A stretch of DNA of 64,000 bases from an uncultured Chloroflexia bacterium (lineage in GTDB: Bacteria; Chloroflexota; Anaerolineae; CG2-30-64-16). The notes below the pieces were generated by a model, which made no database searches, had not been told where the DNA came from, and saw only the letters and a list, made by a program, of their open reading frames with translations. The stretch is from assembly GCA_963841825.1 (NCBI GenBank), contig CAWJEL010000021.1:7260-71259 (forward strand), in the 5' to 3' direction. Every line of letters begins with the position of its first letter. Within the stretch, counting starts at the first letter, position 1. Of the stretch, positions 27,299 to 32,663 are shown in pieces. The position numbers and the translations under genes were made by a program.

Positions 27299-27576
27299 AT
27301 GAAAATTCACGTCCACGTCGAGCGCCTCATCCTGGACGGGCTGCCCCTGGGCCCCGGCGACGGGCGCGCGTGCAGACAGCGGTCGAGGCGGAGCTCGTTC
27401 GCTTGTTGGCTGCGAGCAGCACGGCTGAAGGCGGCATCGCGCAGGCGTGGCCGGCGGGTGGCGCCGTGCCCGATGTGCCGGCCGCGCCCATCCAGCTCAA
27501 CGCGGGCGCGCGCCCCGCCGAGATCGGCGGGCAGATCGCACACAGCGTTTATGGCGGCATCGGAGGGAAGCGGTGA
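27299..27576 (+). pseudogene. Small conserved protein preceding the DUF4157 effectors; one frame change near 27366
   Basis: MKIHVHVERLILDGLPLGPGDG in frame 2, then ARVQTAVEAELVRLLAAS...IAHSVYGGIGGKR-stop in frame 1. The stop overlaps the GTG start of the next gene (GTGA at 27573-27576). Confidence 0.6.
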
Positions 27577-30500
27577 GCGATCTCGCCCGAACTCCGATCG
27601 CACACAATGCGCGTCAGGCCGCGGGGCCGGCGACCCGCGGCTTGCTGCAACGCCAATGCGCGTGCGGCAATCACACGGTCGCGGGTGGGGAGTGCGCGGC
27701 CTGCGCGAAGAAAAAGAACGGTTTGCAGCGGAAGCTTGCCATTGGCGCAAGCAATGATCCACTGGAACGGGAAGCCGACCGAGTGGCGGATCAGGTGATG
27801 GCCGCATCGGCACATCCCGTAGTTGGCGGCGCCCCACCGCGCATCCAGCGCTCCGCGAGGCAAGCGACCGAGGGTACGGGCACCGCGCCCGCCAGCGTTG
27901 ACCGTGTCCTTGCCGGCGCAGGCAGGCCACTCGAACCCGCCCTGCGACAGGACATGGAACAACGCTTCGGCCACGATTTCTCGCGTGTGCGCGTGCATGC
28001 CGGCGCTGCGGCTGAGCAATCAGCGCGGGAGGTGAACGCCAATGCCTACACAGTCGGACACGCCGTTGTGTTCGGTGCGGGGGGGTTCGCACCGGGTACG
28101 CAGGAGGGACGGCGGTTGATTGCCCATGAGCTGACGCATGTGGTGCAACAGGCGGATCATCTGGGGCCAGTGCAGATGCTTCGTCGCAACGCCTGCGCTC
28201 ACGACCAGCCGCAAGGATCTGGCTGCGGCCGGATCGTGGGCACCGACGCGTCAGGGGACGAGACCGAATTCCCGGCCGATCGGCTCATCGCTGAATCCAT
28301 GCGGTCGAAATTCCCCTCTGGCTCATGGATTGCGCAAGTATACACGCCACCCAATCTCGCCAAGGGCGGGAAGGCATTCGGCAAAATGGACGCCGTCAAG
28401 GTGACAGAAGGCAACGATCTGACCCTTGAGGTCGTCGAGATCAAATCGCGAAACAACGGAATGGGCACCGGCGGGTGCGCCCTCGCCACGACCGAGACCT
28501 TGGGGTACATCGCTGCGCTTAACCCGCTCACCCCGAGGATGGCAGCGATCTCGCAGGGGCTTCAGAAGATAGGCGGTTTAAGTCTTCCAGACTGCCGCAG
28601 CATAAACGCTGAGACGAAAAAAAAGCTTGGCGATGCGGGCATCAATACGGACGACAAGACAGATATGGACGCCTGGTGCGTCCTGAACAGCATCCAGAAC
28701 CGGCTCGGACGGAAGATCACGAAAGGCTTCGCGTCGGTCACGGTGAAGGCAAACAAGGACGGAACTGCCGGAACCGATTACACGGCGGTTGCATTCCCTA
28801 TCCGCTGCCGAGGGGATAAAAGCGGTTTGTTCCGCATGGTATTCCAGGTCAACCAGAAGGGTGGGGTCAGTTATCGGTGCGAGAAAGCGTGCAGCGAGAA
28901 GCGGCGGAAAGAGCTTGAGAAGGAACTCGAGAAGGACATGAGCAAAGAGGTCGAGATCCAGACCCAAGCGGAGAAAAAGAAATATACGTTCGACGAGCCG
29001 ATCGGGGACGAGGACCCGAGCGAGGATTCGCGTGTCGAGGTCGGAGATGAGGGGATCGACACCACCGACCTGGCGATTTGGAGCACGGGGGCGGTAGCGG
29101 CAACGGCAGCGCTTCATATCGCGATGAGCAAGGCAAAAACGAAAGCAGAGCAAGAGCTCATCCGCAGAACTACTGAAAAGCTCACGCAGGAGCTAGCTCG
29201 ACGCGGCGCGCCAGAAGTTGCCAAGATGCTCGACTCGAAGAATCTCTCGAAGCTCGGGACGAAGGCCTATCAGGAGGCACTTGAAAAAGCGGAACAGGCG
29301 GCCCAAAAGCGGATCCTGGCGGCAGGTGAGAAGCGACTTGCCAAGAAGCTCGCCGAAAAGGGATTGAAGAAAGGGGCCAAGACGGCCGCAAAGAAACTGG
29401 TCGAGAAGGGGGCGAAGGCGATCCCCTACATCGGCGCGATCATCGTCGCCGTAGAACTCCTCGGTGCTGCTGATGCCTATGCCAAGGGAGCGGAGATCCA
29501 GTTCGGCCTGGAAGGCGGCGACGCTGACCTTGCGGGGGACACTAACGTCGAGGTCAAGGGAGACAAGCCGAAGGGCGGAGCCACGACCGATGCCAACCTG
29601 AAGGACACGAAGATCGACGTGGAGTTGGCTAAAGCCCCGGACACATCAGGTTCAATTGAAATCGAGGCCAAGAAGGTCTCGATCCGAGGCAAGATCGGGG
29701 CCGATAACACTCCCGTCCTCGTGGATATGAAACTCAAGCTAGAAAACACTACGATCATTTATAAGAATACCGGTCGGTTCAAAGGGGGCAAGGTGGTGCT
29801 TGACGGCTCCCTAAACATTCAGGACTCCACAATCGAGATTGATCTCCCCAAGGACGCAGTGATCGAAACATCCGATGCGATGGCAACACGCGAGATCAAG
29901 GGTGCGAAGATCAAAATCACGAAGGTCGGCTCAGGCCCTGGCGCAGGCAAAGGCGAAGGCCAGGCCGAAGTCGCTGCAGGGGAAAAGTCCAAGGACGTCG
30001 AGAAAAAGGAGCCCCTCAGCGCCGAGGAGGTCAAACTCATCGAAGCTATTCGGAAAGACGAGAAGCTGAAGAAGATCTACGACGCCATCTTCGGGGCTAA
30101 AGGACTCAAGGTCGACAAAGCAACCCTCGACCGATTCCTCGCCCTCAAGGCCAAGCTCGAAGCCCACCCTGAACTTGTCGATGTCATCATCAAGAACAGC
30201 ACAAAGGGGGACGTAACCGACCCGATCAAGCAGGTTATCGAGCCTATGGAGCGCATTATCGCGGATGCAGAGAAGCAGAGCGAGCCCAAGAAGGATGCTG
30301 CGCCCCCGGCCGACGCGACATCGCCTTCAGATCCGAAGAAAGATGAGAAACAGAAGGAACCGGAGAAGGCTGCTGCGGCAGAAACCGCAACAGCCTCGGG
30401 ACCAACGGATGCGGAGAAAGCGAAGGCCACACCGCTGGCCTTTTGGTCGCTCTTCGATAAGGGTGAGGCAAAGCCAACCCGTGTCGGAGTCGACGATTCA

Positions 30501-30773: not shown

Positions 30774-30848
30774 CGGCATTCATAATAATCCTGGCCTGAG
30801 GTGCTCTCATACTTGATGGAACCAACTCTATTCAAGGATAACGCAGGG

Positions 30849-32663
30849 ATGATGACCGATTTGATACACGCTCGCACAGCACCCATGATACAGGAGCTTC
30901 GTCGTTCCAGCGGCCTGCTGCAACGCCAGTGCGCGTGCGGCAATCACACGGTCGCGAGTGGGGAGTGCGCGGCGTGTGCGAAGAAAAAGAGCGGCTTACA
31001 GCGGAAGCTTGCCATTGGCGCAAACAATGATCCACTGGAACGGGAAGCCGACCGAGTTGCCGATCAGGTATTGGCCGCGTCGTCACGTCCCGCCATTAAC
31101 AACACACCACCACACATCCAGCGCTCCGCGAGGCAAGCGAGCGAGGGTACGGGCACCGCGCCCGACGGCGTAGATCGCGTCCTTGCCAGCGCTGGCAGGC
31201 CGCTGGATCCGGTGCTCCAGCAGGACATGGGCCAACGTTTTGGCTACGATTTTTCGCGGGTACGGGTACACTCTGATGCCGCCGCTGAGCAATCGGCGCG
31301 GGAGGTGAACGCCAAGGCCTACACTGTCGGTAATCACATCGTCTTCGGGGCAGGGCACAACCTGGATGGCAGCACGAACAGTCGACTTCTGCTGGCCCAT
31401 GAGCTAACGCACGTGCTGCAACAGACGCAGGGCAACAGTGGAGCACCTTCCATGCTTCAGGATCCGGCAGCCGAAGATGAGGCCGCCCGTGCATCTGAAG
31501 CCGTCCGTTCGGCTCAACCTGTTCACGTCAGCGAGCATCGCGCCGTGGGTATCGCTCGCCAGCCCCTTTCGGATGAAGAGAAGATCAGGCAGGCGCTGGG
31601 ATTACCGGAAGGCCCAACTCGATCCACACCGCCGGTGGTATGGCTGGGCAAGCGACCGACCTGGTTTGGCACCAATCCAAAGACGCCAATCACCTACCTC
31701 GGCCAACCTCCCAGTGCGGATCTGAAGAAGTCGATTGACGCGGCACGAACGGCGCCGGCGCCTCGACCACAACCGATGATGCAACTCCTGCCGCCGCCGC
31801 GCACCGCCTTCGAGGCTCAGGCGTTCAAGAAGAACATGAGGCGGCTGAAGGACCCGAAGACGGGCGCAATCATCGGCTTCTTTGCTGAAGAAAGTGGAGT
31901 GTTCAACGTATACGACATTGAGGGGAAAAAGACCACTGTGGGCGAACGCCCCCTCGAATCGCCCTTGATCGATCCGATCGATCTGATCCCGTTCGAACTC
32001 ATCGGATCGCTGGCTGCGAAGACTGCTACGACAGTCGGCAGGGGCATGGCCAAGACGCTCACACGAGCAGCCGCCAAGGAAGCCGGCGTCGAGGGGGCCG
32101 AGATCACCACGAGAGCAGTCGGCGATCTGGCTAAGGCCGAAGGCAAGAACCTGGTTGGGAGCGCGGCCAAGTCGGAAGCAGATGAGTTTCAGGCATTTCA
32201 GCAGATGCTTCGCGAGGAGGGCGCTTCGGGATCGGTGCGGGCAGAGGGCGACATCATCCAGTTGGGGCCGCATGGCGCTGCTTCCCAGAATCGGAGCGCA
32301 CTCGGCGTATCGGGAAGAGATGTGCAGTCCGCTCATGGCGCGCCCCAATCCGTGATGAAAGGCATGGCTGGCTACAATCCCAACCATGCGCTGACGAAGC
32401 TGATGGATCGCGGCGCACACACGGGCATGGATCGATATTGGAAAGAGGCATTCCAGAATATGCGCCGGGCAGGGCAGACAGAAGCGAGCGCCCAAACGGT
32501 TCATGATGTGGTCGTCGAATCGATCCGCCGTGCATCAGGGCTGTCAGCGGGTGAAAGGAACTCGTTGATCGCTCGCCTGTCGGATGAGATGTTCGTGGAG
32601 TTTGGGTTGAAGCAGGGTGATATGCTGACCCTGCCGTATCCCAACATCAAGCCCGCGCCCTGA
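30849..32663 (+). CDS. DUF4157 N-terminal domain effector 2 with an unrelated C-terminal cargo
   Basis: ORF 30801-32663. ATG 30849 chosen (AAGGA 9 nt upstream; MMTDLIHAR aligns with VSDLARTPIAH of effector 1). HELTH at 31398-31412. C-terminal ~420 aa have no motif I can name with confidence. Confidence 0.85.
   Translation: MMTDLIHARTAPMIQELRRSSGLLQRQCACGNHTVASGECAACAKKKSGLQRKLAIGANNDPLEREADRVADQVLAASSRPAINNTPPHIQRSARQASEGTGTAPDGVDRVLASAGRPLDPVLQQDMGQRFGYDFSRVRVHSDAAAEQSAREVNAKAYTVGNHIVFGAGHNLDGSTNSRLLLAHELTHVLQQTQGNSGAPSMLQDPAAEDEAARASEAVRSAQPVHVSEHRAVGIARQPLSDEEKIRQALGLPEGPTRSTPPVVWLGKRPTWFGTNPKTPITYLGQPPSADLKKSIDAARTAPAPRPQPMMQLLPPPRTAFEAQAFKKNMRRLKDPKTGAIIGFFAEESGVFNVYDIEGKKTTVGERPLESPLIDPIDLIPFELIGSLAAKTATTVGRGMAKTLTRAAAKEAGVEGAEITTRAVGDLAKAEGKNLVGSAAKSEADEFQAFQQMLREEGASGSVRAEGDIIQLGPHGAASQNRSALGVSGRDVQSAHGAPQSVMKGMAGYNPNHALTKLMDRGAHTGMDRYWKEAFQNMRRAGQTEASAQTVHDVVVESIRRASGLSAGERNSLIARLSDEMFVEFGLKQGDMLTLPYPNIKPAP
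30914..31427 (+). repeat. Shared N-terminal effector module, copy B
   Basis: See 27642-28152. Confidence 0.85.

Follow-up and report, generated by a model that had tools for sequence, protein, structure and literature searches.

Introduction

The DUF4157 domain is a core domain of extracellular contractile injection systems (eCISs), in which it acts as a toxin-linked N-terminal domain, and it is carried by many validated eCIS toxins (Geller et al., PMC8213781); no other single feature has been reported to predict eCIS toxins as strongly (PMC11297309). Many eCIS-associated toxins (EATs) lack immunity genes (Geller et al., PMC8213781). In this study, we analyzed a 64-kb stretch of contig CAWJEL010000021.1 from an uncultured Chloroflexia bacterium (hereafter the window; all positions are window coordinates), in which two adjacent genes, called A and B here, encode proteins that open with one common DUF4157-containing module and lie within a predicted eCIS operon.

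The closest described pair is found in AlgoCIS, where cgo1 and cgo2 are adjacent and internal to the cluster, and where their products occupy the lumen of the tube, from which contraction releases them (PMC8894135). Cgo1 and Cgo2 have similar N-terminal domains (NTDs) together with DUF4157, and different C-terminal domains (CTDs); AlgoCIS particles assemble without the Cgo proteins, and the toxicity of Cgo1 is independent of its HExxH motifs (PMC8894135). Loading into AlgoCIS requires the NTD, can dispense with the CTD and depends on the AAA+ protein Alg15, and loading sequences have been described as not conserved between systems (preprint 10.64898/2026.05.27.728243).

In the contractile injection system (CIS) cluster of Anabaena, the neighboring DUF4157 proteins Alr3312 and Alr3311 were detected by mass spectrometry but did not appear in the symmetric map, and a role as cargo of the lumen was proposed for them (PMC8894136). 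In Streptomyces, the gene for the DUF4157 protein Tme (BN159_7576) adjoins the tube-initiator and VgrG genes, and Tme copurifies with their products (PMC11126660), while Sle2 binds spike-complex proteins (PMC11126660, PMC13277306). The payloads Pdp1 and Pnf of the Photorhabdus virulence cassettes (PVC) carry N-terminal signal peptides and are loaded by Pvc15 (PMC11495950).

Results

Genes A and B and their shared module

We estimate at roughly 75% the probability that genes A and B encode cargo (effector) proteins of an eCIS, of the Cgo1/Cgo2 type. Gene A (27573-30773) encodes a DUF4157 protein of 1066 aa, and gene B (30849-32663) one of 604 aa. The public protein collection contains both sequences in identical form (P0021 and P0001, respectively), from one 75.9-kb contig, and the two genes, like the operon around them, lie on the forward (+) strand. 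Gene A starts with GTG at 27573, preceded by GGAGG 7 nt upstream, and gene B with ATG at 30849. The two genes are part of an operon at about 19.7-46 kb in which Pfam searches identified sheath, tube, cap, AAA+ ATPase, VgrG spike, PAAR tip, gp25 and baseplate J genes in co-linear order, as in the antifeeding prophage (Afp) and PVC clusters. Judged by this gene content, the locus is predicted to be a complete Afp/PVC-like eCIS operon, with A and B internal to the cluster, in the interval from the ATPase gene to the tube-initiator gene.

As claimed in an initial annotation of this DNA, the two genes open with the same module. BLASTP of protein A against protein B returned a single significant high-scoring segment pair (HSP), with 141 of 204 residues identical (69%, E 5e-86), and every other HSP had E > 1. 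At the DNA level, blastn aligned 27634-28154 with 30907-31427 at 80.4% identity over 526 nt, and this was the only repeat of the region within the whole window. The shared module is N-terminal in both proteins and about 195 aa long, and all four of the motifs quoted for it were recovered (QRQCACGNHTVxGGECAACAKKK, EREADRVADQV, FG(H/Y)DFSRVRVH and HELTHVxQQ). DNA identity between A and B was 89% in the leader tract (27636-27890), 71% in the DUF4157 core (27891-28151) and about 44% in both flanks, and the longest exact runs were 33, 27, 26, 25 and 23 nt. The module is thus far more alike than anything else in the two genes, as had been stated; the description "near-identical in long runs" is somewhat generous, the longest run being 33 nt. 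The abrupt end of similarity after the HExxH motif was also borne out, about 9 residues beyond it, and no BLASTP similarity was found between the remaining tails of 867 aa (A) and 412 aa (B), in agreement with the claim that the cargos are unrelated.

Both modules matched PF13699 (formerly DUF4157, now eCIS_core), at 106.8 bits in gene A (E-values from 1e-31 to 6.6e-31) and 99.5 bits in gene B (1e-29 to 1.2e-28), compared with a gathering cut-off of 22 bits, and nearly all of the 79 model positions were covered. In both genes the domain has HExxH (HELTH) at its C-terminal end. These matches inside an eCIS operon agree with the earlier statement that DUF4157 is toxin-linked and eCIS-associated (PMC8213781). 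In gene A, the leader (NTD) spans 27573-27926, with a cysteine knuckle at 27657-27704, and is followed by DUF4157 at 27927-28157 (residues 161-237 of the long open reading frame [ORF]; HExxH at 28125-28139). In gene B, the leader, placed by alignment to A, spans 30849-31199 (knuckle at 30930-30977), and DUF4157 spans 31200-31433 (HExxH at 31398-31412). No solved structure was related to the module by sequence.

The leader is about 118 aa in each protein, holds an ExEADxxA helix, and is rich in Ala, Gly, Arg and Gln in addition to its Cys4 motif and conserved helix motif. From the N-terminus, it consists of a divergent tip of about 21 aa, LLQR, a CxC-x9-CxxC knuckle, KKK-GLQRK, the NDPLEREADRVADQV helix, a short variable stretch, IQR and a second short stretch, after which comes the zincin-like DUF4157 core of 80 aa, terminating in HELTHVxQQ. 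When 191 related leaders were compared (see the survey below), the full Cys motif was present in 85 and CxxC alone in 45 more. The [L/I/M/V]QR motifs of leader A lie at 27645-27653, 27723-27731 and 27843-27851, with equivalents in gene B. Across 190-191 related genes, [LIMV]QR occurred 302 times in leaders versus about 16 times in shuffled sequences (about 18-fold), and 75 versus about 8 times within 30 residues past HExxH (about 9-fold, with a peak at +16 to +19). Its rate was 14-16 per 1000 positions in leader and junction versus 1.1 per 1000 in tails, about a 13-fold difference. These motifs may be docking or cleavage sites; no mention of them was found in the eCIS literature cited here.

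Like cgo1 and cgo2, genes A and B are thus an adjacent in-cluster pair of putative co-resident cargos, with a common NTD and DUF4157, different CTDs of very unequal length (proteins of 498 and 1228 aa in AlgoCIS, and of 604 and 1066 aa in the window) and a partner AAA+ ATPase in the operon. Every sequence-level feature of the Cgo1/Cgo2 pair that was examined was also found here, and by these features the cassette is a fresh instance of a published architecture, since Cgo1/Cgo2, Alr3311/Alr3312 and the EATs already display it. There are also differences. AlgoCIS belongs to clade Ib (Bacteroidota), whereas the window system belongs to another eCIS clade with another gene order; and the window leader, unlike that of the Cgo proteins, has the CxC...CxxC knuckle and [L/I]QR motifs and is 50-85% conserved across phyla, from Proteobacteria to Methanosarcina. 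Neither window tail is related to the CTDs of the Cgo proteins, and for A and B loading is a prediction.

The proteins also resemble EATs (Geller et al. 2021, Danov et al. 2024; PMC8213781, PMC11297309), which have an N-terminal DUF4157, the eCIS signature, and a variable C-terminal toxin, often with a long linker. In the EAT papers the emphasis is on effectors encoded 3'-terminally in the operon, whereas A and B occupy a conserved internal slot, and neither window tail belongs to the domain families of those papers, as judged by Pfam. By description, A and B resemble Alr3312/Alr3311 as two neighboring DUF4157 proteins in a CIS cluster, but the Anabaena system is intracellular and anchored in the thylakoid membrane, unlike the predicted eCIS of the window. 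With the PVC payloads, the likeness is an N-terminal leader that directs loading into the tube via the AAA+ ATPase of the operon, a role that the window leader may have by analogy; PVC payloads lack DUF4157, and their genes are at the operon 3' end (PMC11495950).

Module and cargo in related loci

An earlier protein-level search with the module covered only proteins of up to 343 aa, owing to a length filter, and excluded A and B themselves. Among the nearest 120 module proteins in that search (all ≤343 aa), 67 tails of at least 60 aa fell into 55 clusters, none related to A or B. Because of the length filter, the survey of long proteins was redone on genome contigs, with one genome per species scanned with the module, and yielded 89 loci with 191 DUF4157 ORFs. 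In 62 of the 89 loci, two to five DUF4157 genes were arranged head to tail. Such a survey of the C-terminal domains that follow the module had been suggested previously; 182 tails formed 101 clusters, and 133 of 142 co-resident tail pairs were unrelated (9 were related).

The best match of a leader was a paralog in the same locus in 63/156 cases, and that of a core in 33/161 cases, whereas 1% would be expected by chance. The modules within a locus were mutually the best match in L001 (56% identity), in L005 (55%) and in the window (75%). The L001 ortholog of cargo A has a tail that is 64% identical to that of A and a module that is only 38% identical, and modules 74-85% identical to that of A carry unrelated tails in other contigs. 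As judged from these comparisons, module and cargo have discordant histories, and the recombination signature appears as a rule of the family and not as a peculiarity of the window. The proposal of a conserved delivery module on swappable effector tails is therefore supported at the sequence level by the eCIS operon, the PF13699 matches and the module/cargo discordance.

One point of the initial annotation did not hold, namely that the placement between the ATPase and baseplate genes is special. The order (sheath-tube-...-cap-)ATPase, one to five DUF4157 genes, and then tube2-p107-VgrG-related-VgrG-PAAR-gp25 was found in 32 of the 89 loci, from many phyla, and most of the other loci were interrupted by contig ends. 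The placement is a conserved slot of this eCIS lineage, and by synteny the interval from the ATPase to the tube initiator appears to be its standard effector bay; the Streptomyces and AlgoCIS clusters also carry DUF4157 genes internally (PMC11126660, PMC8894135).

Relatives with the Cys leader and 50-73% module identity were found in Methylococcales, Nitrosomonadaceae, Burkholderiales, Acidobacteriota, Verrucomicrobiota, Cyanobacteria, Nitrospirota, Actinomycetota and Methanosarcina, for example in Methanosarcina sp. DH2 (L031), Methylotuvimicrobium sp. KM1 (L011) and Nostoc sp. WHI (L034). The structural proteins of the lineage are 65-86% identical across phyla (loci L009-L088), which suggests that the whole operon has been widely transferred horizontally. 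Two DUF4157 modules in one protein were observed in P0040 (1447 aa) and at L076 7887-11321 and L082 6399-8696; these double-module proteins may be fused tandem effectors, or may reflect an opposite assembly frameshift.

Mosaic divergence within the module

Genes A and B were then compared codon by codon. In the leader tract (27636-27890), the proportion of synonymous differences (pS) was 0.20 and that of nonsynonymous differences (pN) 0.08, whereas in the DUF4157 core (27891-28151) pS was 0.60 and pN 0.18; synonymous changes differed between leader and core with p = 3.4e-6 by Fisher's exact test. A core pS of 0.60 points to an old paralog pair conserved at the protein level, and the value matches that of old paralogs elsewhere. 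A leader pS of 0.20 next to it argues for recent homogenization limited to the leader, over a tract of about 255 nt (27636-27890 in A and 30909-31163 in B, 89% nt identity). On this evidence, we interpret the leader as homogenized recently, by gene conversion or by partial duplication. The "recent duplication of the module" that had been put forward would accordingly apply to its leader and not to its core.

The leader pS of the window pair was the lowest among 88 adjacent DUF4157 gene pairs. In the 88 adjacent pairs of other loci, both parts were mostly saturated, the median pS being 0.67 in leaders and 0.70 in cores. A general rule that leader pS is lower than core pS in tandem pairs was unsupported (88 pairs, Wilcoxon p = 0.18), and low leader pS is peculiar to a few loci, the window included.

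The C-terminal tail of gene B

A first homolog search with tail B found 20 relatives with a common C-terminal domain. This domain is about 139 aa long in cargo B (32238-32654; alignment A6) and was modeled by AlphaFold2 (AF2) with a predicted local distance difference test score (pLDDT) of 85-97. When its profile was searched against 1.84 billion representative proteins, members were found in 359 representative clusters, in proteins of 108-2602 aa that nearly always have the domain at their very C-terminal end. Among 44 long members, 32 carried eCIS_core, 2 RHS and 1 SpvB plus TcdB_mid, the last being a Tc-toxin BC-type protein of 2602 aa. Nine positions are invariant in alignment A6 (H12, R19, S31, H33, Y46, H61, D65, W68 and E117), and H, H, W and E are still invariant in 44 distant members.

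Polymorphic toxins (RHS, the hypervariable TcC regions of Tc toxins, and contact-dependent inhibition [CDI]) are said, in the framework of Zhang et al. 2012, to combine a conserved trafficking N-terminus with a swappable C-terminal toxin. Cargo B resembles them in that its terminal domain itself occurs on RHS and SpvB+TcdB proteins, and thus at the end of proteins with different trafficking N-termini, and in that it has conserved polar residues of catalytic type. It differs in its presumed delivery by an eCIS and in having no adjacent immunity gene; downstream of gene B, only 50 nt separate it from the tube-initiator gene. The number of clusters, the C-terminal position, the eCIS_core, RHS and SpvB+TcdB carriers and the invariant polar residues suggest that the terminal domain of tail B, which has hallmarks of a polymorphic-toxin domain, is a toxin.

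Tail B had no match in Pfam, NCBIfam, PHROGs or PDB sequences, and Foldseek against the PDB returned nothing at E < 0.5. Ntox1 was considered as its identity and rejected; six members carry Ntox1, but just upstream of the domain and not on it (as checked in P0249). Between module and terminal domain, a beta-rich middle piece of cargo B (31806-31985; GVFNVYDIEG...PLIDPIDLIPFEL) aligns with P0002, P0011 and P0017-19 (alignment A2; AF2 strands with pLDDT 81-88). Because this piece also occurs in proteins with another C-terminal domain, the modularity is nested.

The C-terminal tail of gene A

The tail A family (about 870 aa) comprised 17 homologs, most of them near full-length and the two most distant aligned over about 30%; PF13699 precedes the tail in every one. 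Its first part, domain 1 (28170-28940), is globular and conserved. It contains invariant Cys, His and Asp residues and, on consecutive predicted strands, a triad of the form D...ExK (D at 28389, E at 28437, K at 28443; D74, E90 and K92), which is invariant in the 17 homologs. The AF2 model (pLDDT 88, predicted template modeling score 0.85) has the predicted element order H36-47, E52-59, E71-80, E84-93 and H103-133, which would fit the alpha-beta-beta-beta-alpha core of PD-(D/E)xK enzymes. Domain 1 is possibly nuclease-like on the strength of these features. An assignment as a PD-(D/E)xK nuclease was retained as a hypothesis only: motif and strand order fit, but no significant match was found, neither in Pfam (none at E ≤ 5) nor in a PDB profile search, and the best Foldseek E-values were 0.9 (PDB) and 0.05 (BFVD), with weak and scattered nuclease names only.

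The rest of cargo A (28941-30770), described here from hydropathy and composition and conserved over its whole length in homologs, consists of a helical region rich in Lys, Ala and Glu between two hydrophobic helices (29070-29126 and 29415-29471), then a region rich in beta structure and finally a C-terminal domain. The hydrophobic helix pair may insert into membranes. This layout raises a different role for one or both proteins, and for A especially, as a tape-measure-like or adaptor component, with DUF4157 docked on the tube-initiator/spike hub and the helical hydrophobic region in the lumen, inserting into membranes on firing, as for Streptomyces Tme and Sle1/Sle2. Gene A fits the outline of Tme as defined in PMC11126660: an N-terminal DUF4157, hydrophobic helices with a coiled coil, and synteny with the tube initiator and spike genes. 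Tme and Sle proteins (PMC11126660, PMC13277306) share with it an N-terminal DUF4157 on a long protein, the helices and coiled coil and the tube-initiator/VgrG neighborhood, and tie DUF4157 to the spike hub. A Lys-rich helical region between hydrophobic helices, a position close 5' of the tube-initiator gene like that of BN159_7576, a DUF4157 that always precedes the cargo A family, the binding of DUF4157 proteins to spike and tube-initiator proteins, and the lack of a recognizable toxin domain or immunity gene all favor such a role.

Nevertheless, we consider this role unlikely. Tme, compared here by its published description, is a protein of 2247 aa that has homology to tape-measure proteins and contains an EndA-like nuclease. 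Gene A, at 1066 aa, is half as long and had no tape-measure similarity in Pfam or PHROGs and no tape-measure or DNA-entry/EndA nuclease match in Pfam, PHROGs or NCBIfam. AlgoCIS particles, moreover, assemble without their Cgo proteins. In L002-L005, the homolog of cargo A is located 3'-terminally or away from the slot, as would be expected of a mobile cargo more than of a structural component with a set position.

Reading frames of the operon and the small upstream ORF

Directly upstream of gene A is a small conserved ORF of about 90 aa (27299-27576), for which at least 18 loci have a homolog directly 5' of their first DUF4157 gene. The ORF matches no Pfam family, and its protein may serve effectors as an adaptor or chaperone. 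The window copy has a frameshift near 27352-27368, with its halves in different frames, and its stop overlaps the GTG of gene A (GTGA).

Frame changes were also found by tblastn in the ATPase gene (near 26150-26193, 27076-27101 and 27235), whose orthologs are each encoded in one ORF (641-697 aa), and, in comparison with intact orthologs, in the sheath C-terminus (about 21865), in gp25 (about 35953-35972) and in a baseplate gene (about 37333-37710). With that of the small ORF, these amount to at least seven in about 19 kb, whereas the 5 kb occupied by genes A and B are free of them. They point to an assembly prone to indels, in keeping with the similar fragmentation of related metagenome contigs (L007 and L008), or else to an operon in decay. 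In the latter case the cassette would be a relic in a non-functional eCIS operon, and A and B would have no current role. We regard this as less likely still than a tape-measure or adaptor role: the frame changes in sheath, ATPase (three), small ORF, gp25 and baseplate gene speak for it, but A and B are intact and align over their full length with homologs, pN is lower than pS in both leader and core, and the fragmentation of L007 and L008 points to the assembly rather than to biology.

Discussion

The reading of A and B as eCIS cargo draws on the predicted complete operon, the PF13699 matches, the Cgo precedent, the survey, the discordance between module and cargo and the mosaic pS. The anatomy of the sequences, their family membership and synteny, the discordance of histories and the mosaic pS were observed; loading, injection and toxicity of A and B would follow by analogy with AlgoCIS and PVC. 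Under this cargo reading, the two genes would be co-transcribed with the particle genes, the leader would be the ticket recognized by the AAA+ ATPase of the operon, and the protein would be threaded into the inner tube's lumen. DUF4157 would be an accessory part, which may hold the cargo at the tube-initiator/spike hub or may process it. Contraction of the sheath would then expel the tails into the target cell, tail B supplying a small enzyme-like toxin domain and tail A a large multidomain effector. In evolution, tails would be swapped in the effector bay by recombination just after HExxH, and the leaders of A and B would subsequently have been homogenized by gene conversion in this genome.

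A more far-reaching version of this scheme can be formulated, which we hold to be doubtful as a whole. The leader, and not the DUF4157 core, would be the sequence-specific loading ticket of a widely transferred lineage, kept matched among co-resident cargos by gene conversion; it may act together with the upstream 90-aa protein; the [L/I]QR motifs could be sites of processing by the HExxH domain; and the tails would be the founders of two new toxin families, one of them common to eCIS, RHS and Tc systems.

Several points weigh against A and B as loaded and active cargo. The ATPase as encoded would be a broken cargo loader, and with loader and structural genes frameshifted the machine as it stands may be non-functional. 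Loading in AlgoCIS works without the DUF4157 domain (preprint 10.64898/2026.05.27.728243). Neither tail matches a characterized toxin family by sequence or fold in Pfam, NCBIfam, PHROGs, PDB or Foldseek searches, and no cognate immunity-type ORF follows gene A or gene B, where the gaps are 75 and 50 nt.

A simple tandem duplication of one gene, with tails diverged beyond recognition and no recombination of the module onto foreign cargos, would account for two adjacent genes on the same strand with a common N-terminus, but is highly improbable, given that the tails differ in length (867 versus 412 aa) and predicted fold, that the homologs of each tail sit on different module variants, that the terminal domain of tail B also occurs on RHS and Tc proteins, and that pS is mosaic inside the module.

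The findings fit the current picture of eCIS biology and leave it unchanged. What is new is modest: the terminal domain of tail B, the tail A family, the frameshifted loader and operon genes, and the gene-conversion signal specific to the leader. Two uncharacterized putative effector tails are added to the eCIS repertoire. The tail B domain, with about 360 clusters, no Pfam model, no solved-structure match and carriers in three delivery systems (eCIS, RHS and Tc), is a promising place to look for a toxin activity of a new kind. In engineered eCIS particles, the conserved leader could be used as a transferable tag for loading, and the mosaic pS offers a natural-history argument that the leader must match the machine.

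Operon genes and other features of the window

The following operon genes were assigned by Pfam. The sheath gene (Phage_sheath_1, 19684-21915) is followed by the tube gene (Phage_T4_gp19, 22032-22550), and a baseplate-hub-like gene lies between tube and cap. The cap gene is of the Pvc16 type (Pvc16_N; Pvc16/Afp16; 24015-25271). The AAA+ ATPase gene (25268-27302) is of the Afp15/Pvc15/Alg15 type, with a WHD N-domain (25268-26449) and an AAA domain (26193-27302). Downstream of gene B lies a second tube-family gene of tube-initiator type (CIS_tube, PF19266; 32714-33367), which has the same neighbor position in 32 loci. A VgrG-related gene and a VgrG OB-fold gene (Phage_base_V, 34818-35342) come next, and the 3' part of the operon contains DUF4280/PAAR-like, GPW_gp25, Baseplate_J and Tail_P2_I genes and a gene for a DUF6519 protein. 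With regard to the last family, a side observation for window positions 43621-45972 is that in L002 a 1471-aa DUF6519 protein is encoded two genes 5' of a cargo A homolog. The operon is bordered by ordinary chromosomal genes, namely MTTB and aminotransferase genes upstream and a resistance-nodulation-division (RND) efflux pump downstream.

GC content at third codon positions was 0.67-0.73 in genes A and B, 0.73-0.80 in the upstream structural genes and 0.86-0.88 in the downstream ones; the lower values of the effector genes are consistent with a quicker turnover of the effector bay. The junctions after gene A (30774-30848) and gene B (32664-32713), which had been called AT-rich, are so only in relative terms, with GC contents of 0.47 and 0.56 versus about 0.64 for the window, and a promoter/terminator scan of these junctions gave no signal above shuffled expectation. 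Farther downstream, positions 55001-59000 form a low-GC island (GC 0.53-0.56 versus about 0.64) with ORFs that lack a Pfam match, and a gene for a trypsin-like peptidase is located inside it at 57717-58892.

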